Assembly: GCF_016888165.1 (NCBI RefSeq)
Contig: NZ_JACSWC010000299.1
Location: forward strand, 46,193 to 110,192
Length of the DNA stretch: 64,000 nt
From: Halomicronema sp. CCY15110
GTDB lineage: Bacteria; Cyanobacteriota; Cyanobacteriia; Phormidesmidales; Phormidesmidaceae
Reading direction: 5' to 3'
Position numbers and translations under genes: made by a program. Of this stretch, positions 5,899 to 54,040 are shown in pieces; the first letter of the stretch is position 1; the number at the start of each line of letters is the position of its first letter. The notes beneath the pieces are model-generated. The model saw only the letters and a program-made list of their open reading frames with translations. It ran no database searches and was not told where the DNA came from.

Positions 5899-6401
5899 AA
5901 TGTTTACAAAAGTTAAGCTTCTTTCACATCATAGTACCTGCTTTCCCGCTGGGACCGCAGCCGCGCCCCAATCTCGTCCTGGTTGGGCCGCCGCCCGCCC
6001 CAGCCAAGCCCCAAAAACGAGAGAATCCCAACGGTGCGCCGTTCGCAACTGAATGCGGCGGCCACGATGCCATTGCGCGATCGCTGCCAGCCGTTGGGAT
6101 GGCCCATTGACTCAGTCAGATCTCTCTCCAGCGGTAGCATAGGGCCACAGTCAGCCACCCATCAGCCGCCTAATCGTTGCAATCCATCAATATGTGATGC
6201 ATTCATGCATCCGGTCGAATTTCTTTGGGTAATATTGAATTCTGAAACCACGTGAGTGCTTCCAGCAGTCAGATTGGGCACCTTAAAGCTTGGTTAGGGT
6301 GATATCCCGCTGCTAACGGCAGTTTCTGGTTTGGACAATTCACAACAGAACTGGCGTCAGGGCGGACAAAATTCAGTTACTAATACATCCAGTTTGGATA
6401 T

Positions 6402-7178: not shown

Positions 7179-7320
7179 GCCTGCCAGGCATCATTGGCCA
7201 TTTGCCCACGGTTCAGTCAGAGCCACCCAGTCGGGCAAATTTCCTTCGATATGATAGGAGGCAAGGAGTTCCCGCCATGGGCCAGATTGGGATCGTGGTC
7301 CGTGGCCTCAGCAATCAGGA

Positions 7321-10300
7321 GTGCCCATGCCAGATGATGCGTTAGACGCGCTACTCAAAGGTGAACCGAGGAAGCGGCAGTCGCGCCTGCCAGGGCTCAA
7401 GGTGGCAGATATTTTAACCATGCCATCCGAACAGCAATCGCTAGTGAATTGGTTGCTGCGTCATTATGAAGCGAATGCTGAAACCATTGCCCAGAAGATC
7501 AATCAACCGCTGCCGCAAGTGCAATCGAGCCTGGATAACCTGATCCAGCAGGGATTACTTAAAACGATCAACCGTCAAGGCGCTACTCTTTATCGCGTCA
7601 AGCTAGCGCCGAAGTCGGGCCGACAAATGCCGACGGATGTCTGGCAGGTATTGGATCAAGACACTAAGCAGGCGAATGTCTTCATCTCTTACTCGCGGCG
7701 CAACAAGGAATTTGTGCAAGAACTGCACGGCGCGTTGGAGGCCACCAAACGCGAAGTCTGGGTCGATTGGGAAAATATTCCCGTCGCGGTGGACTGGTGG
7801 CAGGAAATTCAACTGGGCATTGAATTAGCCGATACCTTCGTCTTTGTGCTGAGTCCTGACTCTGTGTCCTCTAAGGTGTGTGGCCAGGAAATAGAAGAAG
7901 CTCTGAAGCACAACAAACGCCTGGTGCCCGTCATCTGCCAGGATGTGCAACCGGATCAGGTACATCCCGAACTGGCCCGCCTCAACTGGATTTTCTTACG
8001 CGCTCAAGACGACTTTCAACAAGGATTCAAAAACCTATTAGAAGCCCTAGACCAAGATTTAGACTACGTTCGCACCCATACACGCCTTCTCGTTCGGGCA
8101 CTGGAATGGGATCGCAACGGCCAGGATGGTAGCTATCTGCTGCGGGGAGCCGATCTCGATCGCGCCAACCACTACCTCGCCCAAGGCAAAGATCAGGAAC
8201 CGCGTCCCACTGCCCTGCACCATCAATATGTTATCGCCAGTGGCGAAGTCGAAGCCGCTGTCAGGGATCTCGAACTGAGACGCCAAAAGGCGGCGATGGC
8301 AGGGCAACAGCGGTGGTTGCAACTCGTCACGGCAATTTCGGTTTTGGCCGTGGCGATGGGCATCACTAGTTGGGGTCTATCGCGGCAGGCCCAAAGCGCC
8401 CAAAAGCGGGCTGAGCAAGCTCAACTCCGAGCCCTGAACCAGTCGGCGCAGGCGTTATTCCTGTCCGACCAACGGTTTGACGCCCTCTTGTCGGCGACCC
8501 AAGCGGGACAGCTCTTCCAATCTTTAGAGCCCGAATGGCAGACGCCTGAGCTGCGATCGCAAGTGCTCAGTGCGCTCCAGCAGTCGCTGTTCTGGATTCA
8601 AGAGCGCAATCGTTTAGAGGGACATACCGGCACCGTTTGGCAGGTCGCCTTTAGCCCCGATGAGCAAAAACTAGCTTCGGTCAGTGCCGATGGCGACATT
8701 CGCCTGTGGGGACTCGATGGCCAGCTCTTAAACGTGCTGGAATGTGACGGCTCCCCCTTGCTGGATGTCGCTTTTTCGGCCGATGGCGATCGCCTCGTGG
8801 CGGTTGATGATGACGGCTCGATACACTTATGGAGTTCGAATGGCATCCTACAGGGCACCTGGCAGGCCCACCAACAGCCCACCCGAGCCGTCGCCTTTGC
8901 GCCATCAGGCACCCAAATCGCCACTGCCAGCGAAGATGCCACCGTCAAAGTTTGGTCCACAGAGGGCGACTTAGTAGCCACCCTAGAGGGCGATATCGGG
9001 GGCTTTCAGGCGCTCTTGTGGACGGCTGACGACCAAATTATCGCCGGCGACGAACAAGGCAATATCTACGTTTGGGACGCTACCGGAGTCTTGATTAGCC
9101 AGTTCTCCAGTTCCTCTGAGGCGCTGATTGCCCTGGCCTTGAGTCCCGATGGGGCCACCCTAGCAGCCGTCGGGGACGATCGCCAGGTCAGGCTACACAA
9201 TCTCGCCGATCAGTCCCTGATCCGCACATTCCCCGCCCACAACGGTGCCATCTACAACGTGCAGTTCACCCCCGATGGCGAACAGCTAATCACCGTAGGT
9301 GACGATAAGGTCATTCGCCTGTGGCAGCTAGACGGTACGGCATCGGCTAACCTCGTCGGCCACACGGGCTTGATTGCGGCGCTCGCCATTAGCCCTGATG
9401 GCTTGATGATCGCCACCTCTGGCGGCGATCACGCCATTCGATTATGGGATTTACAGCGCGATAACCTGCACCTGCTGCTGGGTCATCAAGACTCCGTTAA
9501 TAGTGTGGCGATCGCCCCGACCGAAGACCTGATTGTCACGGGCGGGCGCGATGGCACGGTGCGTCTCTGGCAGGAATCGGGCACGCCCCTCAACACGCTA
9601 ACCGGCCACGACAGAGCCGTCAATGCGGTGGCCTTTAGCCCCGATGGTGAACTCGTAGCCTCTGCGGGGGCCGATGGCACCGTGCGCCTCTGGCAAGATG
9701 TCCAGTCCAACACCCCGACCGCTCAAGTCCTGACAGGGCACGTGGGAGCCGTCAACAATGTCGCCTTTAGCCCCGATGGTGAGCTCGTGGCTTCCGTCGG
9801 CGAAGACCACACTCTCCGCTTGTGGCGACCCGATGGCCGCTTAGTGACCACCATCGAAGAAGCTCACCGAGATGGAGCCTTTGGCGTCGCCTTTAGTCCC
9901 GATGGGCAACAAATTGTGACCAGCGGCTGGGATCACCTGGCGAAAATCTGGCCCGTTGCCGACATCGACCAGGCCAAGCCGCAAATTTTAGCCGGCCACC
10001 AAGGGTGGGTGCTCGATGCTCAGTTCAGTCCGGATGGAGCCCTGATCGCCACCGCCAGTTACGACAATTCAGTACGGCTTTGGCAGGCCAGTACGGGCGA
10101 ACCGTTGACCACCCTGCAGGGCCATAGGGATGGAGTGTTATCGGTGGCATTTACCCCCAGTGGCCAAAACATTGTTACCGCGAGCAACGACAACTCCATT
10201 CGCATTTGGGACCTAGAGGGTCGAACCGTCTCGACCCTTTCCGGGCATACCCAAGGCGTGAACGCAGTCGCAGTCGACCCCAAAGAGGGCTATGTGGTGT

Positions 10301-10503
10301 CCGCCAGCAGTGATGGCCGGGGCCTGATTTGGGAACGTGATGGCATTGAAGATATTGCCACCTCGCTAGCGAGTAGCTGTGACTGGCTAGCGGATTACCT
10401 CGCCCACAACCGCCAAGATGACCCGACGCTGCAGACGCTCTGCCAGGCACCAGAGGCCGATACAGCAGTCGGTACGGCGACAACCGTCACAGACACACCC
10501 TGA
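7321..10503 (+). CDS. Winged-helix + TIR domain + WD40-repeat protein
   Basis: TIR motif ANVFISYSRRNKEFVQEL...WVDWENIPVAVDWWQEIQLGIE...VFVLSPDSVSSKVCGQEIEEA. A hydrophobic segment near residue 330 follows. After it come more than 12 WD40 repeats (GH...WD patterns such as LEGHTGTVWQVAFSPD ... IRLWD). N-terminal HTH-like region SEQQSLVNWLLRHYEANAETIAQKINQPLPQVQSSLDNLIQQGLL. Confidence 0.8.
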   Translation: MPMPDDALDALLKGEPRKRQSRLPGLKVADILTMPSEQQSLVNWLLRHYEANAETIAQKINQPLPQVQSSLDNLIQQGLLKTINRQGATLYRVKLAPKSGRQMPTDVWQVLDQDTKQANVFISYSRRNKEFVQELHGALEATKREVWVDWENIPVAVDWWQEIQLGIELADTFVFVLSPDSVSSKVCGQEIEEALKHNKRLVPVICQDVQPDQVHPELARLNWIFLRAQDDFQQGFKNLLEALDQDLDYVRTHTRLLVRALEWDRNGQDGSYLLRGADLDRANHYLAQGKDQEPRPTALHHQYVIASGEVEAAVRDLELRRQKAAMAGQQRWLQLVTAISVLAVAMGITSWGLSRQAQSAQKRAEQAQLRALNQSAQALFLSDQRFDALLSATQAGQLFQSLEPEWQTPELRSQVLSALQQSLFWIQERNRLEGHTGTVWQVAFSPDEQKLASVSADGDIRLWGLDGQLLNVLECDGSPLLDVAFSADGDRLVAVDDDGSIHLWSSNGILQGTWQAHQQPTRAVAFAPSGTQIATASEDATVKVWSTEGDLVATLEGDIGGFQALLWTADDQIIAGDEQGNIYVWDATGVLISQFSSSSEALIALALSPDGATLAAVGDDRQVRLHNLADQSLIRTFPAHNGAIYNVQFTPDGEQLITVGDDKVIRLWQLDGTASANLVGHTGLIAALAISPDGLMIATSGGDHAIRLWDLQRDNLHLLLGHQDSVNSVAIAPTEDLIVTGGRDGTVRLWQESGTPLNTLTGHDRAVNAVAFSPDGELVASAGADGTVRLWQDVQSNTPTAQVLTGHVGAVNNVAFSPDGELVASVGEDHTLRLWRPDGRLVTTIEEAHRDGAFGVAFSPDGQQIVTSGWDHLAKIWPVADIDQAKPQILAGHQGWVLDAQFSPDGALIATASYDNSVRLWQASTGEPLTTLQGHRDGVLSVAFTPSGQNIVTASNDNSIRIWDLEGRTVSTLSGHTQGVNAVAVDPKEGYVVSASSDGRGLIWERDGIEDIATSLASSCDWLADYLAHNRQDDPTLQTLCQAPEADTAVGTATTVTDTP

Positions 10504-20815: not shown

Positions 20816-21193
20816 AATCGGGAAGAGTCAGACATAAGCCGGGTTCTGTTCTCTCAGACGAGCTGAGAGGGCGATTATCTATCTGGGACGGCTGTTACCA
20901 ACCGCCTCTTGCGGTACACCTACAGCGAGACAGGAAAAAGACCAACCCTTGTCTCTGCGACCTTGCTCCCGACCGGGGTTTACCGAGCCAGCACCTCTCG
21001 ATGCTGCTGGTGCGCTCTTACCGCACCTTTGCACCCTTACCTGTGAGCGATCGCTCCATCGGCGGTATGTTTCTGTGGCACTATCCTCACGGTCACCCGC
21101 ACTGGGCGTTACCCAGCAAGTCTGGTCTTTCGGGAGCCCGGACTTTCCTCGGGCCAGCCATGCCAACCCGTAATCGCCTCGCTAGCTCTTCCC
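20816..21193 (-). ncRNA. rnpB: RNase P RNA (type A)
   Basis: Minus strand contains GGAAAGUCCGGGCUCC (P4, rc of 21131-21147), GGUAAGAGCGCACCAGC and ACAGAACCCGGCUUAU. The 5' GGGAAGAG pairs with 3' CUCUUCCC to form P1. Overlapped by spurious ORFs 20879..21166 and 20949..21207. Confidence 0.85.
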
Positions 21194-24250: not shown

Positions 24251-25366
24251 CTAAGCAGTCATTCCCATTTTTCGTAACCAACGATAATGAGATAATAATC
24301 CTGACCGAAAAGAACGATGCTGGTTATATCTCACTCCATATTCTCGACAAGTCTGCTCCACGACTTTAGAAATTTCAGGATAGTTGACATGGCAGATATT
24401 AGGAAATAAATGGTGCTCGACCTGAAAATTCAAACCACCCAGAAGCCATGTCATTACATGGTTATTTCGAGAGAAGTTTACTGTTGTTTCGATCTGATGC
24501 ACTGCCCACTCTTTCTCAATGAGATTCAACTCGACAATTGGTGATGGAAAATCGGCGGCTTCGACCACATGCGCTAGTTGAAATACTACGCTCAGCACTA
24601 GCCCTAAGGTAATAGCGACTAATCCATAGCTGGCTAAAACTTGCCATAGCGTGTGAACGGATAATGGAATCGCAAAGGCAAGCACGAAGAATACTAGTTT
24701 ACCGCCCAAAAATATGGCTAGATTGCTGGATTTAGGACGTGGATAGCGGCGATCGCCAATTTTGCCCGAGATCAGAGAATAAAAATCGTCATAGAAATGC
24801 CACTTAATCGCTAACAATCCATACAGCAACCACAAATAATAGTGTTGCCAACGGTGGAAGGCGAAGTGCGAATGAGAAGGAGCAAGTCGCCCAAAAATCC
24901 CCACATTCAGATCCATGTCATGATCAGCAATGTTGGTATAGGTATGATGGAAGAAATTGTGCTTCCAATGCCAAATATAAGAACTACCGCCAATCAGATC
25001 TAAACTCATTGCCATGAGCTGATTCACCCATCGCACATCAGAATAGGCGTGATGGGCACCATCATGTTGAATCCCAAAACCAATGCTTGCTGTAACGGCA
25101 CCAAGCATGATGCACAAAGGAATGACCTGCCACCAGGTCTGAGCAACCCAAACTAATAGAGCATATAACCCGAAAAAACTCAGCAACAAGATAATGGTTT
25201 TTGCATACATTTGCGGACAATCCCGCACCTTGCGATCTGGATTTTGAAAAAAATCGTCAACCCTTCGTCTTAATTCCGTCTGAAACCCACTATTCTTAGT
25301 AAACTTTATTTTTTTTGCAACCTCTTCTCCAAGAACCACAGACTGATGAGATTTATCGACTTGCAT
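24251..25366 (-). CDS. Acyl-lipid fatty acid desaturase (front-end/Delta6-like His-box pattern)
   Basis: Three His boxes: HDGAHH, HNFFHHTYTN and QVEHHLFPNICH. Multiple TM helices. The gene is distinctly AT-richer than its surroundings. Confidence 0.85.
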   Translation of the reverse strand: MQVDKSHQSVVLGEEVAKKIKFTKNSGFQTELRRRVDDFFQNPDRKVRDCPQMYAKTIILLLSFFGLYALLVWVAQTWWQVIPLCIMLGAVTASIGFGIQHDGAHHAYSDVRWVNQLMAMSLDLIGGSSYIWHWKHNFFHHTYTNIADHDMDLNVGIFGRLAPSHSHFAFHRWQHYYLWLLYGLLAIKWHFYDDFYSLISGKIGDRRYPRPKSSNLAIFLGGKLVFFVLAFAIPLSVHTLWQVLASYGLVAITLGLVLSVVFQLAHVVEAADFPSPIVELNLIEKEWAVHQIETTVNFSRNNHVMTWLLGGLNFQVEHHLFPNICHVNYPEISKVVEQTCREYGVRYNQHRSFRSGLLSHYRWLRKMGMTA

Positions 25367-29126: not shown

Positions 29127-30806
29127 ATGCATATCTATAAAACGGCAGAACCCTACGATGCGATCGTGGTGGGATCGGGGGCCAACGGCGGCGTTGCGGC
29201 CAAAGAATTGGGCGAGCGCGGCTTGCGGGTGCTCGTGCTGGAAGCGGGGCGGGATATTGATCCCCAGCGCGATCCCCATCATCCCGTTCGCGATACGGCG
29301 CGGCGGGTCATCAACATTGCGAGCCAAAAGCACACCCACCAGGCGACCCACCCCGGCTATTGGAAGGCGAATCCCGACTTTTTTGTGGATGAGCGGGAGC
29401 ACCCCTACACCACTCCCGAGCACAAACCGTTTTATTGGATTCGGGGACGGCAGGTCGGGGGGCGCAGCCACACCTGGGGTGGCATCACCCTACGACTGTC
29501 GGACTATGAATTCAAAGCGGCGCAGCGGGACGGATTTGGGGAAGACTGGCCGATCGCCCAGGCCGACCTCGCGCCTTACTACAGCCAGTTGGAGAAATAT
29601 TTTCAAGTGCAGGGCCAGCGCGATGGGCTGTCGCAGTTGCCCGATGGCGATTATCGCCCCCCCGCCCCGTTCACCCCTGCCGAAGCCGACTTACAAAGTC
29701 TGGTCAGTCAACACTGGGCCGATCGCCAACTGATCCACTCGCGCGGCTTTGCCCTCCATCATCCGACCCCCGAACAGCCCTGGTCACGGGCGGCAAGTCC
29801 CGGCTCCTCGCTGAAAACTGCCCTGGCCACGGGCAATGTGGAGCTGCGGCCCAATGCGATCGTCAGTCACCTGACGTTTGATGCTGACAGTCATCACGCC
29901 AGCGGGGTCGCCTTCATTGACCGCCTGACCCATGAGACCCATGAAGTGCGGGGACGGGTGGTGATGCTCTGTGCCTCCGCGATCGAGACGGTGCGAATTT
30001 TGCTGCATTCCACCGCTGAGCATCAGCCCCACGGCTTGGCGAACGACGCGGATCTGCTGGGGCGCTACCTGATGGATCATATTTCCGCAACGCAGTTTTT
30101 CTGGTTGCCGGGGGTGCCCATGCCACCGGAGCCGTTGCCCCTCTCGGGCAGTGAAAGCTTTTTTATCCCGCGCTTTTGCAATTTGGACAACTCGCAAAGT
30201 GAGTCATTTTTGCGAGGCTATGGTCTGTGGGGCGGCATCCAGCGCATTGCGGTGCCTTCTGTTTTACAGAAAGTGGGCGAAGGGGCGATCGGCTTTATGA
30301 TCGGCCATGGCGAAGTGCTGCCCCAGGCCGAAAATCGCGTTAGCCTCAGCCCCGATGTCGTAGACGCTTGGGGCATTCCCGCCGCTCATATCGACTGTGC
30401 CTGGTCGGATAACGAGCAGCAAATGGTGGCCCACATGCGGCAAGAAATTCAGGCCACGGTGGAGGCGGCTGGGGGGCAGTGCTATGCGCTGACGGACCTG
30501 TATCACATGCCCGCCGTGGCCCCGTTGATGCGGCGGGTGGAGAAAAGCCTTACCCCCGCTGGCCCCCCCGGCTACTACATCCACGAAGTCGGCGGCGCGC
30601 GCATGGGCACCTCGCCCCAAAACTCGGTGGTGAATGCCGATAACCAATGTTGGGAAGCGCCGAACGTGCTGGTCACCGACGGCGCCTGTTGGACCTCGTC
30701 GGGGTGGCAGAGTCCCACCCTGACGGAAATGGCGATCACGGCGCGGGCCTGCGATCGCGTCACCCAAAAGCTCCGCCACGGGTTGGCCCTACAACTGGCT
30801 GGCTGA
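29127..30806 (+). CDS. GMC family FAD-dependent oxidoreductase
   Basis: N-term YDAIVVGSGANGGVAAKELGERGLRVLVLEAG. C-terminal GMC region. Confidence 0.85.
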   Translation: MHIYKTAEPYDAIVVGSGANGGVAAKELGERGLRVLVLEAGRDIDPQRDPHHPVRDTARRVINIASQKHTHQATHPGYWKANPDFFVDEREHPYTTPEHKPFYWIRGRQVGGRSHTWGGITLRLSDYEFKAAQRDGFGEDWPIAQADLAPYYSQLEKYFQVQGQRDGLSQLPDGDYRPPAPFTPAEADLQSLVSQHWADRQLIHSRGFALHHPTPEQPWSRAASPGSSLKTALATGNVELRPNAIVSHLTFDADSHHASGVAFIDRLTHETHEVRGRVVMLCASAIETVRILLHSTAEHQPHGLANDADLLGRYLMDHISATQFFWLPGVPMPPEPLPLSGSESFFIPRFCNLDNSQSESFLRGYGLWGGIQRIAVPSVLQKVGEGAIGFMIGHGEVLPQAENRVSLSPDVVDAWGIPAAHIDCAWSDNEQQMVAHMRQEIQATVEAAGGQCYALTDLYHMPAVAPLMRRVEKSLTPAGPPGYYIHEVGGARMGTSPQNSVVNADNQCWEAPNVLVTDGACWTSSGWQSPTLTEMAITARACDRVTQKLRHGLALQLAG

Positions 30807-30941
30807 AACCCTGCCCTGATGACCGATTTCAGACGCCCTGTGAAGGTGGCTTGGCCCAGAAGTGTTACTGAAAATCCAACAGACTTCAAACGAAGCAGCG
30901 CACAGCTACTCAAATTGACTGTGCTATTTTTTCCCTTACCC

Positions 30942-33059
30942 TTAGCTCAATAGCTTGCGCGCCTGCTCCTGCATCGTGCCCGATACGTATGTCGAAGGTG
31001 ATATATCTTGAACTTCAACCCTAGTGACTTTGACTCCCCACGGTTCAGTAGCTTCATCAAGAATATCTAACAGTGCTTGATTCAATTCATTCCTACTACC
31101 GAAGACGTGCGACAAAGATATTTTGCCGATTTCCGATCTCAATGCCGCGACGACCACCTCACGAATGGCATCACTAACATTTTCAATTTCGTAGTAAGTA
31201 CGCTCTAGATCCATGATTTTCCAATACACTACAGCGTCGATATCCAACGGAAAGTTGTCATGTGTAGTAATTGAAAGTGGCAGCACATCTAGCATGCGTT
31301 CCCGAATACTTTCTTCCCAGACAATCGTGTCTAAAAAAGGAACTATGAAATTTAGACCTGGTCTAAGCTTTCTGTGGTATCGGCCCAAGCGCTCGACTAA
31401 TGCTTGATTGCTCTGATTGACTATTCTTATAGCACCAACTGTGTAGCCACCAATGACTATGAGGGCTAAGATGGGAAATAGAGAGGGAGCCATGGCCGCA
31501 TTTGGAGTGGCGTAAAGAAGGATAAAAGCAAAAAAGCCAATGATCACATATGGAATTATCCATTTTTTAAGGAATAACGTATTATTAGTTTTTCTCCGTG
31601 AATTTTCTGCTTCCGTATTTTGATCTGCGCTCTTTTTAATGAATTCGATAACTTGAACAAAATTCTTAGTATATCTTTCTGCCCAAACAAAATTATTCTC
31701 GTATTTTCTTTTCCAATTAAGTGCTATTTTCAAGTCAAGATCTCTCATGAGGGCAGCCTTTCCTTCTTCATATGCTTGGGCACGATCTGACAAACGTATA
31801 TAGTCTCGTGCTGCCTCAGCTTCTTCATCCATCCAACTCTGAAGACGGCCCCAAATACGCATGAGGCTTTCTTGTGAAATATCAATGATGGTGTCTTCCT
31901 GCAGATCGTTGACTAAAGGTGGCATTAGATACGAAACACCTCGCTCTCGAAAACGATTAATGATCGGAATAAGCTCTGATTTGTTTTTTCTAGTGACTGA
32001 ACCGAGTTCTGCCACAGAACAAGGGCGACGGATTTCTCGATTATCAACACCACGTTCTGTTAATCTCTTAAAGATTGTTTCAATTATTTTCCGAGATTCC
32101 TGATTAGAGAAGCTCAGATAAATTTGATCGGCATGAAGAGAGAGGGCCTGGGCCATGCCGCCGATCTCCTCGTAATGTTCCAGATCCAGCGGGACGTCTG
32201 GAGTGTGCTGATCTTCCCAGTGGTCCCAGGTGCGCATGAGGGCATGCTGCAAAATCGGCAACTGATCGGGGTTATCCCCGGTGTCGTTCAGCAACCGATT
32301 TACCAGGCGCGGCGTAATGGTCGCGCCGCCCACCGCCACTGGCCCCTCAATGGCTCGCCGCAACTGATCCCGCGTCAGTCGAGGAATCAGATACTGGCTA
32401 TCGTTCAGGGTTTCCGGCAGGTCACGAAACTGGGCACAGTCGCCCAAAAAGTCCGATCGCATGGTCAGCACCACAAAAATCGGCACCGTCCGCTGGTTCA
32501 CCGCGGCGAGCAGCAGCTTCACAAAGGCGGCCGCCTCATCTTCCGCCTCTAAGTAATGGCCCCCGGCCGCCGCCTGCGCTTTAAACCGAAACAGTTCCTC
32601 AAACTGGTCGACCACGACTAGCAGGCTTTCATCTGGGGCCAGGCGAGCTTGCTGGGTTACCTCCACCAGGCCCAGGCTGCCCCGCCGCAGGGTACTCTCC
32701 GTCAGGGCTCGGCGAATCACGGCTTCATCATGAGCTGCTGACACCCCAAACACATCAGGATCGTTCAACGCCGTGGCCAACTTGTACATCGGCGCACTGC
32801 CCGGCCGCAACACGGCGATGCGCCAGCTAGAGGTGGCTCCCGGCAAAAAGCCGCTGTAAAGCGAGGGCAGCAACCCCGCCCGCACCAGGGAAGATTTGCC
32901 ACTGCCAGAGGTGCCGACCACTCCCAAAAAGCGGGTACGATGCAGGCGCCGGATGAGCTCGTCAGACTGCCCTTCGCGGCCAAAAAACAGATGTTCCTCA
33001 TCCAGTTCAAAGGGCCGCAGACCGGGGAAGGGATTGGTGCGATTAGGTGTGACTACCAT
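30942..33059 (-). CDS. STAND-type P-loop NTPase fused to two TM helices and an SPFH/band-7 (stomatin/HflK-like) domain
   Basis: N-term NPFPGLRPFELDEEHLFFGREGQSDEL...FLGVVGTSGSGKSSLVRAGLLPSL (Walker A) and Walker B LLVVVDQFEE. TM helices WIIPYVIIGFFAFILLYATP and LFPILALIVIGGYTVGAI. C-term GLNFIVPFLDTIVW...ITTHDNFPLDIDAVVYWKI...VVVAALRSEIGKISLSHVF...WGVKVTRVEVQDI is an SPFH domain. The NTPase half is GC-rich. The TM/SPFH half (approx 30942-32100) is markedly AT-rich. Confidence 0.75.
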   Translation of the reverse strand: MVVTPNRTNPFPGLRPFELDEEHLFFGREGQSDELIRRLHRTRFLGVVGTSGSGKSSLVRAGLLPSLYSGFLPGATSSWRIAVLRPGSAPMYKLATALNDPDVFGVSAAHDEAVIRRALTESTLRRGSLGLVEVTQQARLAPDESLLVVVDQFEELFRFKAQAAAGGHYLEAEDEAAAFVKLLLAAVNQRTVPIFVVLTMRSDFLGDCAQFRDLPETLNDSQYLIPRLTRDQLRRAIEGPVAVGGATITPRLVNRLLNDTGDNPDQLPILQHALMRTWDHWEDQHTPDVPLDLEHYEEIGGMAQALSLHADQIYLSFSNQESRKIIETIFKRLTERGVDNREIRRPCSVAELGSVTRKNKSELIPIINRFRERGVSYLMPPLVNDLQEDTIIDISQESLMRIWGRLQSWMDEEAEAARDYIRLSDRAQAYEEGKAALMRDLDLKIALNWKRKYENNFVWAERYTKNFVQVIEFIKKSADQNTEAENSRRKTNNTLFLKKWIIPYVIIGFFAFILLYATPNAAMAPSLFPILALIVIGGYTVGAIRIVNQSNQALVERLGRYHRKLRPGLNFIVPFLDTIVWEESIRERMLDVLPLSITTHDNFPLDIDAVVYWKIMDLERTYYEIENVSDAIREVVVAALRSEIGKISLSHVFGSRNELNQALLDILDEATEPWGVKVTRVEVQDISPSTYVSGTMQEQARKLLS

Positions 33060-33062
33060 CGG

Positions 33063-34556
33063 TTATACTGACCCTCCGGCATGGCCTAACGAAGCGACAA
33101 ACTCGGCCAACAGCGTGGGCTGAAAGCCCTGATCGCCAGGAATCATTAACACCTCTGGATCAGAAAACTTTTGCTTGCCGGGGGCCGCCACATACACCGC
33201 CTTTGCCAGCAACGGTTTCGAGCGACCGTACAGCGTCTTTTTCAAGGCATTCAGGCGACGCTTGAGCCACAGGGCACTGGCCTCGCCGTAGTAAATTAGC
33301 ACCGCCTCACACTGCTGAATCAACGCCTCCGAGCGGCTGAGGGTGCCCTGCTCGTAGTCCGGCAGCATCACCTGAAAATGCTGCTCTAACCACTCATACA
33401 GCGGCTCAATTGCCGGATTGTCTAGATCGCGCTCATCGCAGTCCAAATAAATCTGCACGCGGCCATCGGGGGCCCGGTCCAGGGGCCGCGCCACCGGCGG
33501 CGTCAAGCGGGTATAGATGATATCTTTCAACGCTTCCACATTGGTGCGGATAAAATCGGGGTCGCTCTGGAGTTCGGTCACGAAGTCATCCGGGGTGATG
33601 GCATCGGTATCGGGGGGCAGCCACAGCAACCGCGAAAAGTCGGACCGTCCTTGCCCACATTGGGCCGCTAGCGCCACCTGGTCTCGGGTGCGCAGGGTCG
33701 CCAACTGGCGATAAATCTGTTCCTGAGTGGGCGACTGCCCCGCCGGTGGCTGACTCGGGTTGGGACTCAGCAGATGCACCGACAAGTGGGCGCGGGTCAG
33801 CGCTTCACACACTGTTTGCGCAAACGCCCCCGGCTCACTGGGCAACGGCTGATCCGGCAGCACCTGATGGCCCGCCTGTTCTAACTCCCGCCGAATGCAC
33901 TCGCGATCGACTTGCAAATCGGGGGTGGTGTCGGCCAGATAAATCACCTTGCGGTCAGCGGGCACCGCTCCCAGCAAAGGTGCCGCCAGGGCCGGCGGCC
34001 CGAGCTGAGCATCGAGAATGTCCAGGGTTTGATGAATGTCGTAGGCTAAGTCATTCAACTTGGCGTAAAACTTCCGCTCCTGCTCTGGCCCATAGACCCG
34101 GTCAAACTCTTGGGGCCGACCGGCATCATCAATTTCGTAAAATTCATACCCCAAGAAATTTGCCACCACCGCTGGGTGCTGCTCGATGGGCAGGTAAGTT
34201 TTGATCACCTTAAACAACCGTGTTTTGGTCTCTCCGGCCCGCAAGCCGCCCTGCTGATCCGCCGCCTGACAAAACCCCTGGAGCTCTCTCATACACCAGT
34301 CCGATTGCAAATAGCGCGGCGACAGCACCGACACCAGCAGTGCCGACTGAGTGAGGGCCTCAAAAATGGCCTCATCGAGATCTTCGTTGCCCCAGAGTCG
34401 GCGATCGCGCCAAATTCGCGATTCTTTGCCCCGCAGCTGCGACAAACGAATCTCCAAGGCTTTGTGGAAGGCGGATATCCAACCCGCTTCGTCGGGGTTT
34501 AACGATTGGTTATCAATGTGGGTGAAGCTGATAAAGACATCCTGCGCGAAAGTCAT
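33063..34556 (-). CDS. TIR domain protein (N-terminal TIR plus two further TIR-like/Rossmann-like repeats)
   Basis: DVFISFTHIDN...WISAFHKALEIRLSQLRGKESRIWRD...LLVSVLSPRYLQSDWCMRELQGF is a canonical TIR. Two further repeats with a similar strand pattern (KVIYLADT..., RVQIYLDCDE...AVLIYYGEAS). Its stop lies 3 nt upstream of the NTPase-SPFH gene start. Confidence 0.75.
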   Translation of the reverse strand: MTFAQDVFISFTHIDNQSLNPDEAGWISAFHKALEIRLSQLRGKESRIWRDRRLWGNEDLDEAIFEALTQSALLVSVLSPRYLQSDWCMRELQGFCQAADQQGGLRAGETKTRLFKVIKTYLPIEQHPAVVANFLGYEFYEIDDAGRPQEFDRVYGPEQERKFYAKLNDLAYDIHQTLDILDAQLGPPALAAPLLGAVPADRKVIYLADTTPDLQVDRECIRRELEQAGHQVLPDQPLPSEPGAFAQTVCEALTRAHLSVHLLSPNPSQPPAGQSPTQEQIYRQLATLRTRDQVALAAQCGQGRSDFSRLLWLPPDTDAITPDDFVTELQSDPDFIRTNVEALKDIIYTRLTPPVARPLDRAPDGRVQIYLDCDERDLDNPAIEPLYEWLEQHFQVMLPDYEQGTLSRSEALIQQCEAVLIYYGEASALWLKRRLNALKKTLYGRSKPLLAKAVYVAAPGKQKFSDPEVLMIPGDQGFQPTLLAEFVASLGHAGGSV

Positions 34557-42446: not shown

Positions 42447-42565
42447 ACCGACAACGATAGCGGGCTGCCAGGAATCTCCCTGATCGCCCGCTAACGCTTT
42501 TCCAATCGAGCCCCAAAACAAAACCTCTGAGACAGTTTCAAAGTCTCAGAGGTTTAATGCTTTTA

Positions 42566-42638
42566 TACCCCCAGGGGAATTCGAATCCCCGTCGCCTCCG
42601 TGAAAGGGAGGTGTCCTAGGCCTCTAGACGATGGGGGC
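42566..42638 (-). tRNA. tRNA-Glu (anticodon UUC), no encoded CCA
   Basis: Minus-strand sequence GCCCCCATCGTCTAGAGGCCTAGGACACCTCCCTTTCACGGAGGCGACGGGGATTCGAATTCCCCTGGGGGTA. 7-bp acceptor stem GCCCCCA/TGGGGGT. T-loop GGGGATTCGAATTCCCC. Anticodon loop CTTTCAC. Confidence 0.85.
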
Positions 42639-42758
42639 CTGTGTTGTTCGACACTGATCAATATAAACAAATGCTGTACCCGTGTCAAACAAATAAGCTG
42701 AGCTCAGACCGACTATCTAAAGCCAGGTAAAACCAGGTCTCTCAGCCCAGGGTATATG

Positions 42759-43058
42759 TTACTTCAAACCGCTAGCATTGCGTAGCCTGATGACCTGACG
42801 GCGCATTTCGGGGGAAGCTTCCAGCTCAGTCACTTCGTTTACCTTGACATCAGCATGCAAGGGTTCAAGATAGTTATCGCTGCCGTAGGAGTACGCATCG
42901 ATGAGAATCTGCAAAAGCTGATCGCGATCGCACTGAGCCAGTTCCTCTTCAATCAGGCGAAACTTAAGTGTTACCTCACACTCATAGATTCCCACCTGCG
43001 GCGTCGATGGTTGGACTGCCGAATGCACATTTGTGGAACAGAGTTTCATCTTTGTCAT
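42759..43058 (-). CDS. Hypothetical protein
   Basis: ORF only. Confidence 0.3.
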   Translation of the reverse strand: MTKMKLCSTNVHSAVQPSTPQVGIYECEVTLKFRLIEEELAQCDRDQLLQILIDAYSYGSDNYLEPLHADVKVNEVTELEASPEMRRQVIRLRNASGLK

Positions 43059-43884
43059 GCCGCTTAATCAGAACAGTAGTGACTTTATGGACGGAATGCC
43101 TCATCGTTATTCAGCCTATTCGCGTTTGATGAGGGCATCGCCTAAGTGCTTAACTCCATAGAACCAATTTTTTCTGGAAAAGGGCGCATTGGGATGGCGA
43201 TTTTACTGGATTAATAAATTCCCTTTCTATTAGCTTTAAACAAACGTCTGATCTCCCAGAATACACTGATGAAACCAGTTCAAAATGACCAAAACTCTTT
43301 ACAAGAAGGAGTCTTGGGGGTTATCTAGCCACCCCTCATCTCACCCATGAAATGGGTATGATAATGGCGTCGAATCAGCCCCATTTATCCGCAAAAAGAC
43401 TTAAATCAAGTCCACCTTCTCAGTTTTTTCACACACAAAGGCTTGATTAAATCGAAGTACTGAAACAGATTTCGTGTAAATAGTTTCAGTGCATCAGCAT
43501 TTACACTAGCAACGGGGTGGGTAGTAGCTTGAAATCGATCACTCTAAAATCTCAGTAGAATCTCGCACCTACGATTGGATAGCAGTCGGTGACCGGGAAA
43601 TGTAGTTGGTGCAGTTATCGATGCGGCAAAGGTAATCACTGCATGCGGCCCCAGGGGACATTCATCATTAGGAGATACAGAAAGCCCAGGTAAGTCTCAT
43701 CTGAGAGCTTCGGATGTCCTGACATATCTTCTGAAACTGCCGATTTTGAGGAGATTGACGCCTCAATGCTCCCAGTGGTGAAAGACGGGCGTTGCTTAAG
43801 AATCCTTTAGGTTCAGCGGTTGCCTGACTTTGCTGCATCACTCAACCGATCTTGCGAATCCAGTATTTGACAGCGGATAGACCA

Positions 43885-45759
43885 TTAGTTTGCTGGATTA
43901 GTGGATGAGACTTGCCACCAGCGGACGGTTTCATCGGCGGCGGTGCTGAACAGGGTCTGGCCATCCGGCGCGAATCGCAAATCACTGATCGTCCAGCCGT
44001 GATGCAGCACTGTGACCCGGTGGCGGTTGGCCGAGGCCCATTGCCAGAGGCGAATGGTGCCATCGCGACTGCCGATCGCCAGCCAGGTTTCATCCGCACT
44101 GAGGGCGATCGCGCTGACGGCATCCTGACATCGTTCGAGTTCTGCGTGCTGCCCAAAATCGAGGAGCGACCACACCACGACGCGCCCGGTGCGATCGCCG
44201 GTGATGAGGGCGGGGTCGCTGGCGCTCAGGGTCACCGCTCGTAGCGGGGCTTTGGCCGTCCAAGTATGCAGTAATTGACCGCTGGGGAGTGCCCACAGTC
44301 TCAAGGTGCCCGCTTCGCCCACACTGGCCAGGCGCGTGCCGTCGGGACTCAGCGCGAGATCGTTGACTCGGCCCGCATGACGCCTGAGATCGAAGCTGCG
44401 GGTTCCCTGGTTCAGATCCCAAAGCGAGATGCGGCCGGCGACATCAGCCACCGCCAACGTTTTGCCATCGGGGGTGAGGGCGATCGCGGTAATTTGCCCA
44501 CCGGGCTGTCGCAACGATTGTTGCAATCGATAGGTGGTCAAATCCCATTGCAAAATCTGGCCGTCTTGCCCAGCGGTGATCAGGCGATCGCCCGCTGGCT
44601 GAAACGCTACTGCCGTGACGGCATCCCGGTGACCCGCGCCGAAGCCCAGCCGGGGGGCCAGGGTTTGTAGCACTTCGCCAGTTTGCCGATCCCAAAGCTG
44701 TACGGTGTGATCGCTGTTGGCGGTGGCTATGGCTCGACCATCGGGACTCAGGGCCAGGGCGTTCACCGTGCGCCCTGGGGTCGGCCAGGTGTGGGTACAG
44801 CGCCAGGTGGTTGTCTGAGGGGCCAGCAGCGAGTTGGGCCGCGATCGCGGTGGCCCCAGTCCGGCGGGTGCCAGCTCTGCCAAAACGGCGTCAGCCGTGG
44901 CGTAACGACTGCGGAGCGATCGCGCCACCAGGCGATCAAGCACTCGCCCTAGGGCCTCGCCCACGGGGGTCGGCGCAAAGTCACGCCACACCCACCGATC
45001 TGCCGCCACGGAGTAAAGATCAAAGGGATGTTGCCCCGTCAATAAATGCAGGCAAGTGATGCCCAAGCCGTAGAGATCGCTGGCGGGCACGGCTTTGCCC
45101 AGGGCTTGCTCGGGGGCGGCGTAACCGGCGCTGCCGATAATAGTGCCCGTGCGTTCCAGTTCCGTGGCAGTGGGGGCGGTGCGGGCAGCGCCAAAATCGA
45201 CGAGGATCGGCGGCCCCTCGGGAGGCAGCAAAATATTTTCGGGCTTGATGTCGCGATGGATGATGCCCTGTTGGTGAATGAATTGCAGCACGGGCAACAG
45301 CGCCATCAGCAGCGATCGCACCTGCGGTTCATCAAAGACTCCGTCGGCCTGCAAGACCTGCTCCAAATTGCGTCCGGCGATGTAGGACTGCACCAGACAA
45401 AGGTCGCGGCTCGATTCCAGAATGGCGATGAGTTGAGGAATCTGGGGGTGTCGTCCCAGCGTGGCGAGGCGTTTGGCCTCGGCCAAGTCCCGCTCACGGC
45501 TGCCCTGCGATCGCACAATTTGTTTGATCACGCATTGCTGCGGCGGCGACTCGCCTTCATCCCACGCTAAAAACGTGCGCCCAAAGCCCCCCCGCCCCAG
45601 TTCCTTCACAGGCCGAAAGCGCTGACCCAATCGCAACCGCGCCCCGCAGGACTGGCAGCGATCGCGATCGTCCCCATTTTCCGGGTGGGGGCATTGGGGA
45701 TTGATGCAGAGGGTGACCACGACAGTGTGCGCCATGCATGGCGGTATCAGTGCTCTCAA
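43885..45759 (-). CDS. Ser/Thr protein kinase with N-terminal zinc ribbon and C-terminal WD40 repeats
   Basis: CxxC...CxxC N-term. Kinase motifs GRGGFGRTF, HRDIKPENILL, DFG, APE. C-terminal WD40 repeats (IRLWD, LWDL etc.). Confidence 0.85.
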   Translation of the reverse strand: MRALIPPCMAHTVVVTLCINPQCPHPENGDDRDRCQSCGARLRLGQRFRPVKELGRGGFGRTFLAWDEGESPPQQCVIKQIVRSQGSRERDLAEAKRLATLGRHPQIPQLIAILESSRDLCLVQSYIAGRNLEQVLQADGVFDEPQVRSLLMALLPVLQFIHQQGIIHRDIKPENILLPPEGPPILVDFGAARTAPTATELERTGTIIGSAGYAAPEQALGKAVPASDLYGLGITCLHLLTGQHPFDLYSVAADRWVWRDFAPTPVGEALGRVLDRLVARSLRSRYATADAVLAELAPAGLGPPRSRPNSLLAPQTTTWRCTHTWPTPGRTVNALALSPDGRAIATANSDHTVQLWDRQTGEVLQTLAPRLGFGAGHRDAVTAVAFQPAGDRLITAGQDGQILQWDLTTYRLQQSLRQPGGQITAIALTPDGKTLAVADVAGRISLWDLNQGTRSFDLRRHAGRVNDLALSPDGTRLASVGEAGTLRLWALPSGQLLHTWTAKAPLRAVTLSASDPALITGDRTGRVVVWSLLDFGQHAELERCQDAVSAIALSADETWLAIGSRDGTIRLWQWASANRHRVTVLHHGWTISDLRFAPDGQTLFSTAADETVRWWQVSSTNPAN

Positions 45760-51896: not shown

Positions 51897-52180
51897 GGCG
51901 GCGGTAGGAGTGTGAGGGTGAATGGGTGGTTGGGTAGGGGGTGGCTGGGTAGGGGGTGGGAGAGTGAGTGAAGTGGGTGGGGTGAAGGGTAGGTGAGCTT
52001 GGTGTGTGATGGAAGCCTTACGCAATCAGGCTGAAATCCTCGATTTCTCGTTTCCAAGGTTGGGATTTACAAAAAAATCAGATCACTTCCGAACGATTTT
52101 TCCATTCGCCTACATCACCCACTCCACCTATTACCACCCTGCTACCCCCACACCCTGCCACCCTCACACACTTCTACTCC
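51897..52180. repeat. Two octamer-repeat arrays (G-rich then C-rich orientation) flanking an approx 110 bp spacer between hypA-like and gdmH
   Basis: gtgagggtgaatgggtggttgggtagggggtggctgggtagggggtggg ... and ccaccctgctacccccacaccctgccaccctcacaca, read directly. Confidence 0.55.
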
Positions 52181-53346
52181 CACGCCTGATCAACGTTCAT
52201 ATTCGCCTCGTCGCTGATATAGTCCGGCTTCTCCTGGCGAGGTAGCTGACCGGAGACGACCAGATGGGCCATGGTGTCGCAGATGACGCGGGTGGCCATG
52301 AGAGCAGTCATGTCACTGACATCGTAGGGGGGCGAGACTTCCACGATTTCGATGCCGCAAACGGTGGTTTCCTGCACGATGCGTTTGAGCAGGTGCAGGG
52401 CTTCGCGGGGCATCAGGCCGCCGGGTTCGGGCCAGCCGGTGCCGGGGACAAAGCCCGCATCAATGCAGTCAATGTCGAAGCTGATCCACACGCAGTCGGT
52501 ACCGTCGGTGGCTTTTTCAATGGCAAAATCAGCCGCCGCATCTAGGCCCATTTCCATAATGTCGGTGACGGTGAGGATGTTGGTGCCGCGCTCGCGACAG
52601 ACTTTGACGCCCTGCCGGGGGACTTGCCAGCCACCGATGCCGAGCTGCACGAGATTTTCGGCGGGCGCGTTGGCCATGTTGGTGGCGTGGAACCAAGGGC
52701 AGGTGTGCATCCGTTCGTCGAGGTCGGTTTCCTGGGTGTCGACGTGGCGATCGAAGTGGATGATGCCGACTTTTTTATCCCCTAAATGACGGCAGACGCC
52801 GCGCACGGTGGGGAAGCCGATGGAGTGGTCGCCACCCATAATGATCGGGAAGGCCCCGGAGCTGAAAATGTGGGCAATGCCTTTGGAAATTTGGTCAAAG
52901 GATTTTTCATTATTGGCGGGAATGGTGAACACGTCGCCCACATCGCAGAGGGTGATTTGCTCCCGCAGATCGACCCCGAGCTCAAAGTTGTAGGGGGTGT
53001 AGAGGGCGGAGATTTTGCGGATGCCCTGGGGGCCAAAGCGGGTGCCGGGGCGGTAGGTGGTGCCAGAGTCGTGGGGCACGCCGACGATCGCGACATCGTA
53101 GTTCCCCACCTTCCGCACATCTTCTAAATAGGGCGCTTTGAGGAAGGTGTTGATGCCCGCGTAGTGGGGCAACTCGCCGCGTGAAAAGGTGGGAATGGTG
53201 CGATCGCGAATGCTCTCTGCCGCCTCTAGCCCGTAGGTCAAACCTTGGTCAACTTCTTGTTGCCAGCCCGTCATGGGCAAGCGCGCTTCCTTTTGCAACG
53301 CCTCATTGGCCTCACTGGGGCGGCGAAAGGTGGGTTCATCCGTCAT
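52174..53346 (-). CDS. gdmH: Ureohydrolase (arginase/agmatinase family), putative Ni-dependent guanidine hydrolase
   Basis: Agmatinase-family motifs GGDHSI, DAH-type metal ligands (HFDRHVD, SFDIDCID). Start at MTDEP ATG 53346 with RBS aaggag (gives 390 aa). Sits downstream of a guanidine-I riboswitch and upstream of hypA/hypB-like genes. Confidence 0.7.
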   Translation of the reverse strand: MTDEPTFRRPSEANEALQKEARLPMTGWQQEVDQGLTYGLEAAESIRDRTIPTFSRGELPHYAGINTFLKAPYLEDVRKVGNYDVAIVGVPHDSGTTYRPGTRFGPQGIRKISALYTPYNFELGVDLREQITLCDVGDVFTIPANNEKSFDQISKGIAHIFSSGAFPIIMGGDHSIGFPTVRGVCRHLGDKKVGIIHFDRHVDTQETDLDERMHTCPWFHATNMANAPAENLVQLGIGGWQVPRQGVKVCRERGTNILTVTDIMEMGLDAAADFAIEKATDGTDCVWISFDIDCIDAGFVPGTGWPEPGGLMPREALHLLKRIVQETTVCGIEIVEVSPPYDVSDMTALMATRVICDTMAHLVVSGQLPRQEKPDYISDEANMNVDQAWE

Positions 53347-53390
53347 CACAATCTCCTTTGACAGGTCATTTGCCAGCGTATTCAGCACCA

Positions 53391-53444
53391 AAACGAAAGC
53401 CCGAGAGGGCGACAGAGACAAGATCTCTATCTAACCTCCCGGGC
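53391..53444 (-). terminator. Intrinsic terminator of the riboswitch expression platform (GCCCGGGAGG ... CCCUCUCGGGC + UUUCGUUUU)
   Basis: The stem's 5' arm overlaps the conserved 3' end of the aptamer. A U-tract follows. Read from the minus strand. Confidence 0.6.
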
Positions 53445-53568
53445 TTTTATCCCGCCGTGTACTGGCAAAAAGTCTGAGGCATGCTTAGCCAAACCTTGAA
53501 CCAGCCGCTTCTCTCGGACCAGACATTCAAACCGTGCAAGCCAGCCTGAATCGGAACCCTAGAAGCTA
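53435..53568 (-). promoter_or_regulatory. Guanidine-I riboswitch (ykkC class)
   Basis: Minus strand reads CUAGGGUUCCG ... CUGGUCCGAGAG ... ACACGGCGGGAUAAAAGCCCGGGAGG. This matches the ykkC conserved blocks in order and spacing. Confidence 0.85.
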
Positions 53569-54040
53569 ACCATAACCCCCTCAGTACGGGGAATTGAAAA
53601 CTGAATATCTGCATTAATACCAAGCGAACTGTGAGCGGACCGTAGCTGAGGCTACGGAAGTTTTATTTGGTCGGCAGCGATCGCCGCGCGATCGCGTGCT
53701 CACGACTCTGGCGGCCCAGCGGCTGAGTTTATGAATCTTTTTGAAGTTTGACGCGGCGCTGGGGCGGGGCGGCGGGCGGCTGTATCGAGCGGAGAGGGTA
53801 AGCGCCAGCCCTTGCCAGTCAAGGCTTTTGGTGGCCTTGGTGCAGATGTGGCAAGGGGCGATCGCGGGGGTGAGTGAGCCGGGCAGGGCGGGCGGTTGCC
53901 CGATCGCCACAGGACTGAGGGCGCGATCGCCGCAGACACAACAATGAAGGGTAGAATAATCATCCTGTGACTACGCGACCCCCTTGTCCAGCTTAAGTTT
54001 GTCCCTCTGTAATTAGCGTTAACGCTTCTGCTTCAACGAC

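Follow-up and report, generated by a model that had tools for sequence, protein, structure and literature searches.

A mosaic, TIR-paired nSTAND1 gene with a GC-rich core and an AT-rich, partly stomatin-derived tail in the cyanobacterium Halomicronema sp. CCY15110

The TIR-nSTAND1 operon and its compositional step

The gene examined here is an open reading frame (ORF) of 705 aa on contig NZ_JACSWC010000299.1 of Halomicronema sp. CCY15110, located within a stretch of 64,000 nucleotides that was analysed as a whole and is referred to throughout as the window. It encodes an nSTAND1 NTPase, of the signal transduction ATPases with numerous domains (STAND), followed by a transmembrane (TM) hairpin and a truncated SPFH domain, and it lies directly behind a gene for a TIR-domain protein. 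The base composition of the gene changes abruptly part-way along its length, and the GC-rich 5' part (the core) and the AT-rich 3' part (the tail) are distinguished below. The features of the operon are listed in window coordinates, with G+C content at third codon positions abbreviated as GC3 and AlphaFold2 as AF2.

33063 to 34556, minus strand: TIR partner gene, 497 aa, with an N-terminal TIR domain and a C-terminal part of about 350 aa without a known family; GC3 0.70 (ORF; Pfam TIR_2, E 3.5e-14)
30942 to 33059, minus strand: mosaic ORF, 705 aa, nSTAND1 NTPase, TM hairpin and truncated SPFH (ORF list and Pfam)
32139 to 33059, minus strand: GC-rich core, aa 1-307, GC 0.61, GC3 0.71 (GC breakpoint, blastn, trees, AF2)
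32892 to 32915, minus strand: Walker A motif, G49-S56, GTSGSGKS, aa 49-56
32595 to 32624, minus strand: Walker B motif, L146-E155, LLVVVDQFEE, aa 146-155
32137 to 32149, minus strand: junction, gene nt 911-923, codons 304-308 (codon alignment, maximum chi-square, GC3 breakpoint, AF2)
31575 to 32138, minus strand: AT-rich M-module, aa 308-495, made up of the winged helix as far as about aa 400 and a long helical arm; its GC3 is 0.30 (GC3, AF2)
31509 to 31574, minus strand: TM helix 1, about aa 496-517 (hydropathy)
30945 to 31493, minus strand: stomatin-derived part, aa 523-705 (tblastn, blastn, QmcA match)
31428 to 31481, minus strand: TM helix 2, aa 527-544 (hydropathy)
30960 to 31424, minus strand: SPFH core, aa 546-700 (Pfam Band_7)
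30858 to 32129, no strand: AT-rich tract, GC 0.41 against 0.59 in its flanks (maximum-likelihood boundaries and GC profile)
30759 to 34400, no strand: stretch of 3.6 kb free of the HIP1 octamer (scan for GCGATCGC)

Against Pfam, the 705-aa ORF matched nSTAND1 (E 4.7e-96) and Band_7 (PF01145; E 2.4e-31). The nSTAND1 profile (PF20703) covered aa 10-433 and was matched over positions 1-374 of 379; with this full-length match and both Walker motifs present, the protein was assigned to the nSTAND1 clade of STAND NTPases. An AF2 model of aa 1-522 (predicted local distance difference test score 91, predicted template-modelling score 0.85) contained the three-part STAND fold, with a P-loop nucleotide-binding domain (NBD) at about aa 30-225, a helical lid at aa 230-283 and a winged-helix domain at about aa 293-400, from which long helices lead to TM helix 1. 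Cdc6/Orc1, CED-4 and ZAR1 were the top Foldseek matches of the NTPase model, and a sequence search found no solved structure for the NTPase part or the TIR protein.

In windows of 300 nt, GC fell from 0.59-0.63 to 0.34-0.45 across about 32150 to 30850. A maximum-likelihood breakpoint separated a GC3 of 0.709 before codon 306 from 0.368 after it, with a likelihood ratio (LR) of 82.4, and the breakpoint for all bases was placed at gene nt 931 (window position about 32129). The resulting AT-rich tract extends from the junction to about 85 nt beyond the stop codon. The step was mainly one of third positions in a per-codon analysis, with GC at first positions falling from 0.69 to 0.50 and GC at second positions nearly flat; as first positions also step, the drop is not solely an amino-acid effect. 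When the same breakpoint statistic was applied to the 25 other long ORFs of the window, LR did not exceed 12.1, and the highest value obtained from codon shuffles of the 705-aa ORF was 18.1. The step is exceptional and the single such case among the long ORFs tested in the window, where the other low-GC stretches that overlap long ORFs span whole genes.

The original prediction, made from the letters of the sequence, had described a GC-rich 5' part and an AT-rich 3' part within one ORF. The GC windows and the GC3 breakpoint agreed in confirming this, the comparison of the two halves by sliding-window GC and by codon position was clearly not uniform, and the AT-rich run that it had quoted was located at 31590-31628. 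Its coordinates for the two halves were right, but its assignment of domains to them was not: the break had been placed at a domain-fusion point between the NTPase and the TM/SPFH part, whereas aa 306-308 lie inside nSTAND1 (aa 10-433), about 190 codons upstream of TM/SPFH.

A mosaic gene joined inside the NTPase

The window gene is a mosaic of two parts that meet at codons 304-308. Relatives are denoted by locus (L) and protein (P) numbers where they have to be told apart. By blastn, gene nt 1-942 aligned with L002 at 84% and nt 17-941 with L082 at 82%, with no alignment further 3'. In a codon alignment, third-position identity to these two relatives was 0.6-0.85 up to about aa 307 and then 0.2-0.3, whereas the control pair, L082 and L002, kept a nucleotide identity of 0.7-0.85 throughout with no break at the same point. 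A maximum chi-square analysis with L002-like and L001-like parents placed the breakpoint at nt 921-923 (chi-square 63.3, p<0.0005). Other pairs of parents gave breakpoints at 911-915 and 918-923, and a control triplet was not significant (p=0.18). The junction sits in the conserved motif HYExIGGMxxALS-(R/L)HADQIY and, in the AF2 model, within the helix at 301-315, which is the first helix of the winged-helix domain.

Separate phylogenies of the two parts (neighbour-joining, 300 bootstraps, aa 1-306 versus aa 308-470) were incongruent. None of the 300 bootstraps of the core tree united the three full-length SPFH fusions, each of which was paired with a different relative lacking SPFH: the window gene with L002/P0001 (99%), P0121 with P0004 (95%) and P0242 with P0002 (100%). 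In the M-module tree (aa 308-470), the same three fusions were monophyletic (98%) on a long branch. The best matches to aa 1-306 were nSTAND1 proteins of 470-516 aa from filamentous cyanobacteria (87-70%), none of them with SPFH. Those to aa 307-705 were P0121, itself a fusion (51%), and then the fragment P0122, followed by standalone stomatins that aligned to the last 44% of the query only (76-78%). The closest tail-less relative, L082, has the same TIR and nSTAND1 operon, but its winged-helix region is an ordinary GC-rich one and the TM-SPFH tail is missing; its gene is uniformly GC-rich (GC3 0.63-0.85) without a step.

The separate origin proposed for the 3' part was therefore upheld in that its history differs from that of the core, but the joined piece is not the TM/SPFH module alone, since it includes 188 codons of sequence homologous to the NTPase. 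As the NTPase's own winged helix and helical arm lie in the AT-rich piece, the event is read as an exchange between two nSTAND1 genes and not as a new domain fusion. By sequence, the core (TIR gene, NBD and lid) stands close to the TIR-nSTAND1 operons found in Leptolyngbya/Nodosilinea-like cyanobacteria.

Only 3 nt separate the stop codon of the TIR gene from the start codon of nSTAND1, and a TIR homologue of about 490 aa was found upstream of nSTAND1 in every cyanobacterial locus examined, with identities to the window protein of 72% at L082, 80% at L002 and 58% at L092. The window contains 101 copies of the cyanobacterial highly iterated palindrome (HIP1) octamer GCGATCGC, roughly one per 630 nt and against 2 expected by chance, and none lies between 30758 and 34401. 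The HIP1-free stretch takes in the nSTAND1 gene in full and the greater part of the TIR gene, GC-rich parts included. Because HIP1 is absent across nearly all of it, the distribution suggests that the whole operon is an accessory element and a relatively late arrival in the genome.

The flanking genes (GMC oxidoreductase, CarB and ABC transporter; the convergent GMC oxidoreductase gene lies directly downstream) were found beside the operon in 0 of 15 related loci, so that replacement in situ at an orthologous site is not demonstrable. At the borders of the AT-rich tract, searches gave no direct or inverted repeats, promoter or terminator matches at or below chance, and no tRNA target, the sole tRNA of the window lying at 42566-42638; no transposase adjoins the operon. 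A classical genomic island or transposon insertion was rejected on the grounds that flanking repeats, an adjoining transposase and a border tRNA were all missing. Hypermutation by a diversity-generating retroelement was set aside as improbable, there being no C-type lectin target and a poor fit to an AT-rich tract of 1.27 kb. No relative of the window gene was found in viral contigs, plasmids yielded generic SPFH proteins alone (<42% identity), and the window held no further copies or fragments of the gene.

Elsewhere in the window, low GC was seen in a fatty-acid desaturase gene (24251-25366, GC 0.43), an ORF without a Pfam match (56133-57107, GC 0.38), a Wzy/O-antigen-ligase-like gene (59861-61234, GC 0.43) and a Wzz/GNVR chain-length-determinant-like gene (61572-62981, GC 0.51), four whole-gene islands of accessory-type membrane or envelope genes. 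A further low-GC stretch of 1.4 kb (42450-43900, GC 0.45) contains no ORF of at least 100 aa and carries tRNA-Glu(UUC) at 42566-42638; a GC-rich Ser/Thr kinase-WD40 gene (43885-45759) adjoins it. The window also contains the RNase P RNA (class A, 260 bits) at 20820-21189 and a guanidine-I riboswitch at 53434-53573, upstream of the minus-strand ORF 52174-53421.

The tail lineage and the GC polarity of the family

The tail lineage is rare: beyond the window, four sequences of it were found, for which GC3 is given before and after the junction where both sides are present.

P0121, locus L001: 696 aa, full-length fusion; GC3 0.74 to 0.35
P0242, locus L092: 723 aa, nSTAND1 and Band_7; GC3 0.81 to 0.33 at codon 305 (LR 175)
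P0241, locus L087: fragment with a transposase-like gene after it; GC3 0.78 to 0.30
P0122, locus L086: fragment, tail alone; GC3 0.29

Every member that spans the junction had the same junction, the same GC step and a different GC-rich core, and the junction motif ALS-LHADQ was present in four sequences with different cores. At L092, GC returned to 0.51-0.54 directly past the stop codon. The tails are mutually about 54-65% identical with saturated synonymous sites, and their dN/dS of <0.2 indicates purifying selection. An amino-acid composition that is itself shifted in the AT direction suggests, together with the low dN/dS, a functional tail that has been AT-rich for a long time. The nearest relatives of the M-module were P0121, P0242 and P0241 only (59-65%), all other homologues being at most 49% identical. 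A word-indexed M-module search returned no new member of the lineage but the fragment P0241, a phmmer search of 1.8 billion representatives returned only P0242 above 50% identity, and a scan of Joint Genome Institute (JGI) metagenomes gave nothing closer than one locus at 32% identity. At L087 (36-1140), the M-module copy breaks off early, near codon 419, with an IS630-like transposase gene (HTH_23/28/32/33) behind it, and has probably been disrupted.

The tails also share a substitution in the winged-helix motif IDISHESL, in which the conserved His is kept in 65 of 72 aligned homologues. The window protein has Gln at this position (Q396; codon 396, window 31872-31874), as do P0121, P0241 and P0242, which are all of the tail-lineage sequences covering the motif. 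This His might correspond to the nucleotide-sensing ('MHD') His of other STAND proteins, and the Q396 substitution might therefore matter for the STAND switch.

These comparisons bear on the age of the fusion, which had been called recent. P0121, P0242 and the two fragments share the nSTAND1-TM-SPFH tail at 55-65% identity with saturated synonymous sites, which does not agree with a recent fusion. The join between core and tail is itself recent only in a relative sense, the core having a dS of 0.64 to L002 and 0.74 to L082, its nearest relatives. The nSTAND1-SPFH fusion is older than the core/tail join, and on at least three independent occasions a core and a tail have been brought together.

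The 3' end of the tail is derived from a stomatin. Residues 523-705 aligned with residues 1-176 of standalone 285-aa cyanobacterial stomatins such as P0123 at 78% aa identity (tblastn, window 31493-30963), and by blastn gene nt 1567-2052 aligned with nt 1-483 of a standalone stomatin gene at 73%. The alignment opens at the stomatin Met1, with ...AAMAPSLFPILAL in the window against MAPSIFAILAL in the standalone protein. Among solved structures, E. coli QmcA (PDB 8z5g; residues 10-176 of 305, E 9e-35) came closest. The SPFH/stomatin core that follows the N-terminal membrane helix is present in the window protein, which ends at about stomatin residue 178 of 288 (QmcA residue 176 of 305), before the coiled coils, so that the C-terminal coiled-coil, cage-building region of stomatins is absent. 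The truncation point is about equal in all members with a known 3' end, namely the window protein, P0121, P0242 and P0122. The standalone relatives are located in NfeD-SPFH operons with a GC of 0.53 and a GC3 of about 0.6; at the window locus the NfeD neighbour is absent, the neighbours being the TIR gene and the GMC oxidoreductase gene. A single origin of the fusion is favoured mainly because of the shared truncation point and the shared M-module, and on the same basis a second mosaic boundary at the start of SPFH is considered less likely.

The TM hairpin has charges next to it towards the NTPase (RRKTNNTLFLKK) as well as towards SPFH (RIVNQ...RYHRKLRPG), from which both the NTPase and the SPFH domains are expected to be cytoplasmic. 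This topology agrees with the orientation of QmcA. Relatives L002-L007 have a TM helix at about aa 495-520, followed by a long coiled coil and WD40 repeats; as the position of the TM helix is common to these WD40 relatives, the stomatin piece occupies the usual place of the sensor. If the single TM helix of the L002-L007 relatives spans the membrane once, their WD40 sensor would be extracytoplasmic. Within the window, the ORF at 7321-10503 (1060 aa) has a C-terminal part about 34% identical to the L002 nSTAND1 WD40 array; as it is uniformly GC-rich, WD40 coding sequence is not inherently AT-rich in this genome.

In the original prediction, the step was explained by a TM+SPFH module that came from a low-GC organism and was newly fused to a complete resident NTPase, with the break marking the junction. 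That account correctly anticipates an AT-rich 3' part, a 5' part at host GC and a 3' part with its own phylogenetic history. The break, however, is at aa 306-308 inside nSTAND1, with TM helix 1 beginning only near aa 496 and the stomatin part following from aa 523, and the AT-rich piece carries the homologous NTPase sequence of 188 codons noted above. P0121 and P0242, moreover, have the same fusion at 55-65% tail identity, and the SPFH part came from cyanobacterial stomatin genes with a GC of 0.53, no lower-GC source having been found. This explanation is consequently regarded as very improbable.

An artefact, arising either from chimeric assembly or from the composition of a membrane or Lys/Asn-rich protein, was also considered. 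The tail does consist partly of TM helices, and its amino-acid composition is shifted: the FYMINK fraction was 0.26-0.30 in tails versus 0.17-0.21 in homologous regions of relatives, and K/(K+R) was 0.38-0.42 versus 0.15-0.24. The step is nevertheless strongest at third positions (0.71 to 0.37), the reading frame is intact under the low dN/dS already given, and the same junction was recovered in four independent assemblies from different samples. At residues identical to the standalone stomatin, furthermore, GC3 was 0.39 in the window versus 0.60 in the standalone gene. The likelihood of an artefact is negligible in our estimation.

The break in the window is one case of a clade-wide polarity, in which a conserved GC-rich 5' core is followed by a variable AT-rich 3' end. 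GC3 steps were found in most cyanobacterial TIR-nSTAND1 loci and cluster at three positions: codons ~204-225 (L088, LR 122; L089, LR 66), codons ~295-307 (the window, L001, L087, L092, L004 and roughly L003) and codons ~465-504, at the TM helix (L002, L005, L006 and L007). In the last group, the steps of L002, L005 and L007 are at the TM helix itself and that of L006 (codon 465) is slightly upstream. L010 and L011 had no GC3 step, and neither had L082 and L090, where the gene or the contig stops around codon 473-483. Among homologues from other phyla, only 1 of 72 exceeded an LR of 40, with a median of 6.3. In several relatives the GC of the core (0.56-0.66) exceeds that of the flanks (0.49-0.55). 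The AT-rich 3' parts of L088 and L089 are not related to the window tail. Both loci are TIR-nSTAND1 operons, and their steps are sharper still than that of the window gene. In L088 (gene 6001-7473), GC3 drops from 0.78 to 0.29 at codon ~225; in L089 (gene 6001-7551) it drops from 0.68 to 0.31 at codon ~204, and an ISL3 transposase gene overlaps the 3' end.

This polarity could also be produced without a foreign donor, if only the core has enough homology to recombine among paralogues and strains. The recombining core would then be kept GC-rich by GC-biased gene conversion (gBGC) or selection while the non-recombining tail drifts AT-rich, and the step would be the edge of the recombination tract. 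The steps at several module boundaries in most of the cyanobacterial loci, the AT-richness of four long-diverged tails, the tendency of core GC in relatives to lie above the flanks, the AT-rich accessory-type genes in the window (Wzy-like, desaturase and the ORF without a Pfam match) and the absence of an AT-rich donor from the searches are all in keeping with it. The GC3 difference of 0.34-0.48 is, however, far above the gBGC effects commonly reported for bacteria, the amino-acid composition of the M-module is AT-shifted as well, and the WD40 arrays of L003, although clearly in concerted evolution, are not GC-rich. Recombination at the junction would in any case still be required, so that this mechanism complements a history of recombination between core and tail and does not replace it. 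It is considered rather unlikely, though a serious contender.

Proposed history, predicted function and known systems

The reading preferred here, and thought probable, is that the gene is a recombinant of a GC-rich TIR-nSTAND1 core and an AT-rich winged-helix/TM/stomatin tail that have been repeatedly re-assorted within a STAND conflict system. The nSTAND1-SPFH fusion would have originated once, by read-through that continued in frame into the 5' portion of a stomatin gene, and repeated re-assortment of cores and tails would have followed. The exchange would have proceeded by homologous recombination or gene conversion, with the tract ending where homology ends, at the boundary between lid and winged helix. 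For the persistent AT-richness of the tail, a low-GC donor pool is possible, as is the alternative that accessory DNA which does not recombine is AT-rich in its resting state, the recombining core being kept GC-rich.

Several observations weigh against this reading. No tail of this lineage attached to an AT-rich core came out of searches through 5.8 billion proteins, 1.8 billion representatives and the metagenomes of the JGI. Four tails saturated at synonymous sites retain a GC3 of 0.30-0.37 despite their GC-rich cores; as all of these diverged tails are AT-rich, a single recent transfer followed by amelioration does not account for the composition. The SPFH part of the window protein shares 78% identity with standalone stomatins and a lower 54-60% with the other fused SPFHs, and the three fused SPFHs cluster only weakly (41%). 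The trees are neighbour-joining trees of short segments, and the exchange may have run in either direction, with a tail placed onto resident cores or with paralogues overwriting the cores. Lastly, PADLOC has no model for the window NTPase.

With respect to function, the operon is treated as a two-gene TIR and STAND conflict system of the anti-phage, abortive-infection type, a working model derived from knowledge of the family only. The TM hairpin would hold the NTPase and SPFH in the cytoplasm at the membrane, and the stomatin module would replace the TM-coiled-coil-WD40 sensor of the relatives as a sensing or regulatory module. Activation would oligomerise the NTPase and switch on the TIR partner. 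In PADLOC v2, the NTPase gave only P-loop-level matches (E 0.002 or worse) and the TIR protein a weak ThsB-like match (E 1e-5) with no ThsA, so that the operon could not be placed in any of the known anti-phage systems covered (Avs, bNACHT, Thoeris and others). A description of nSTAND1 combined with a TM hairpin and a truncated stomatin SPFH was not found in the literature searched.

nSTAND1 was originally delimited as a clade of STAND NTPases belonging to predicted counter-invader systems (Kaur, Iyer, Burroughs & Aravind, eLife 2021, PMC8195603; PF20703). The window operon resembles these systems in its full-length NTPase match, its NBD, lid and winged-helix fold, its pairing with TIR, its occurrence in filamentous cyanobacteria and its WD40/TPR relatives. 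It differs from them in having a TM hairpin and truncated stomatin as the sensor, Gln in place of the winged-helix His, and TIR on a separate upstream gene. In P0357, another membrane module is found at the sensor or effector end of an nSTAND1 protein, namely a C-terminal PrsW-type intramembrane protease domain. Compared with prokaryotic stomatin/QmcA (8z5g), the window protein has a homologous N-terminal TM helix and SPFH core, but lacks the region past QmcA residue ~176 and an NfeD neighbour and is fused behind an NTPase. Band7-like domains have also been reported in the vWA proteins of VMAP ternary conflict systems, where a role as a multimerising scaffold was proposed (Kaur et al., eLife 2020, PMC7159879). 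The window operon likewise places SPFH/Band7 inside a predicted NTP-dependent conflict system, although the partner is nSTAND1 instead of vWA/MoxR and both position and system differ.

A GC-rich conserved core with an AT-rich variable C-terminal tip is known from E. coli Rhs (PMC7259588). As in Rhs and CdiA, the TIR-nSTAND1 genes have a conserved, GC-rich 5' core in the same ORF as a 3' end that is variable and AT-rich, the junction lies at a conserved peptide motif, different tips are found on near-identical cores, and core composition is partly off that of the flanks. Unlike Rhs and CdiA, the window gene has no YD or FHA repeats, toxin tip, immunity gene or orphan tip cassette nearby, and its product is predicted to be cytoplasmic or membrane-bound and not secreted. 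The likeness is thus an apparent analogy of gene architecture and not membership. A second parallel may be drawn with the integrated decoys of plant nucleotide-binding leucine-rich-repeat receptors (NLR-ID), in that a STAND/NLR switch bears a fragment of a housekeeping protein at its sensor end (78% to stomatin). For the window gene this parallel is purely inferential, as it would presuppose phage targeting of stomatin and binding by the fragment. In the bacterial NLR-like bNACHT25, sensing is mediated by the host protein DnaJ (PMC12169576).

If both parallels are combined, TIR-nSTAND1 would be a Rhs-like core/tip system whose tip, in this case, is a host-stomatin bait tripped by phage interference with the membrane scaffold. 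This is offered as a speculation that is more probably wrong than right by a wide measure. If true, the stomatin tip would join or mimic the stomatin scaffold as a bacterial counterpart of the plant NLR integrated decoys, and a GC-rich invariant core (TIR, NBD and lid) would be repeatedly re-armed with AT-rich sensor tips at fixed domain boundaries.

The finding belongs with modular exchange in STAND defence genes, which is already known in kind. What is noteworthy is the fixed junction with its persistent compositional polarity, together with a host-derived stomatin fragment at the sensor position. The polarity between core and sensor goes beyond simple amelioration theory, and it could serve as a cheap sequence signature for module boundaries in defence genes. 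The undescribed architecture of nSTAND1, TM hairpin and truncated stomatin leads to the hypothesis of membrane-scaffold surveillance. At nucleotide resolution, the locus shows how a bacterial NLR-like gene gains a new sensing end while its core stays put, at a lid/winged-helix boundary that has been used independently at least three times.

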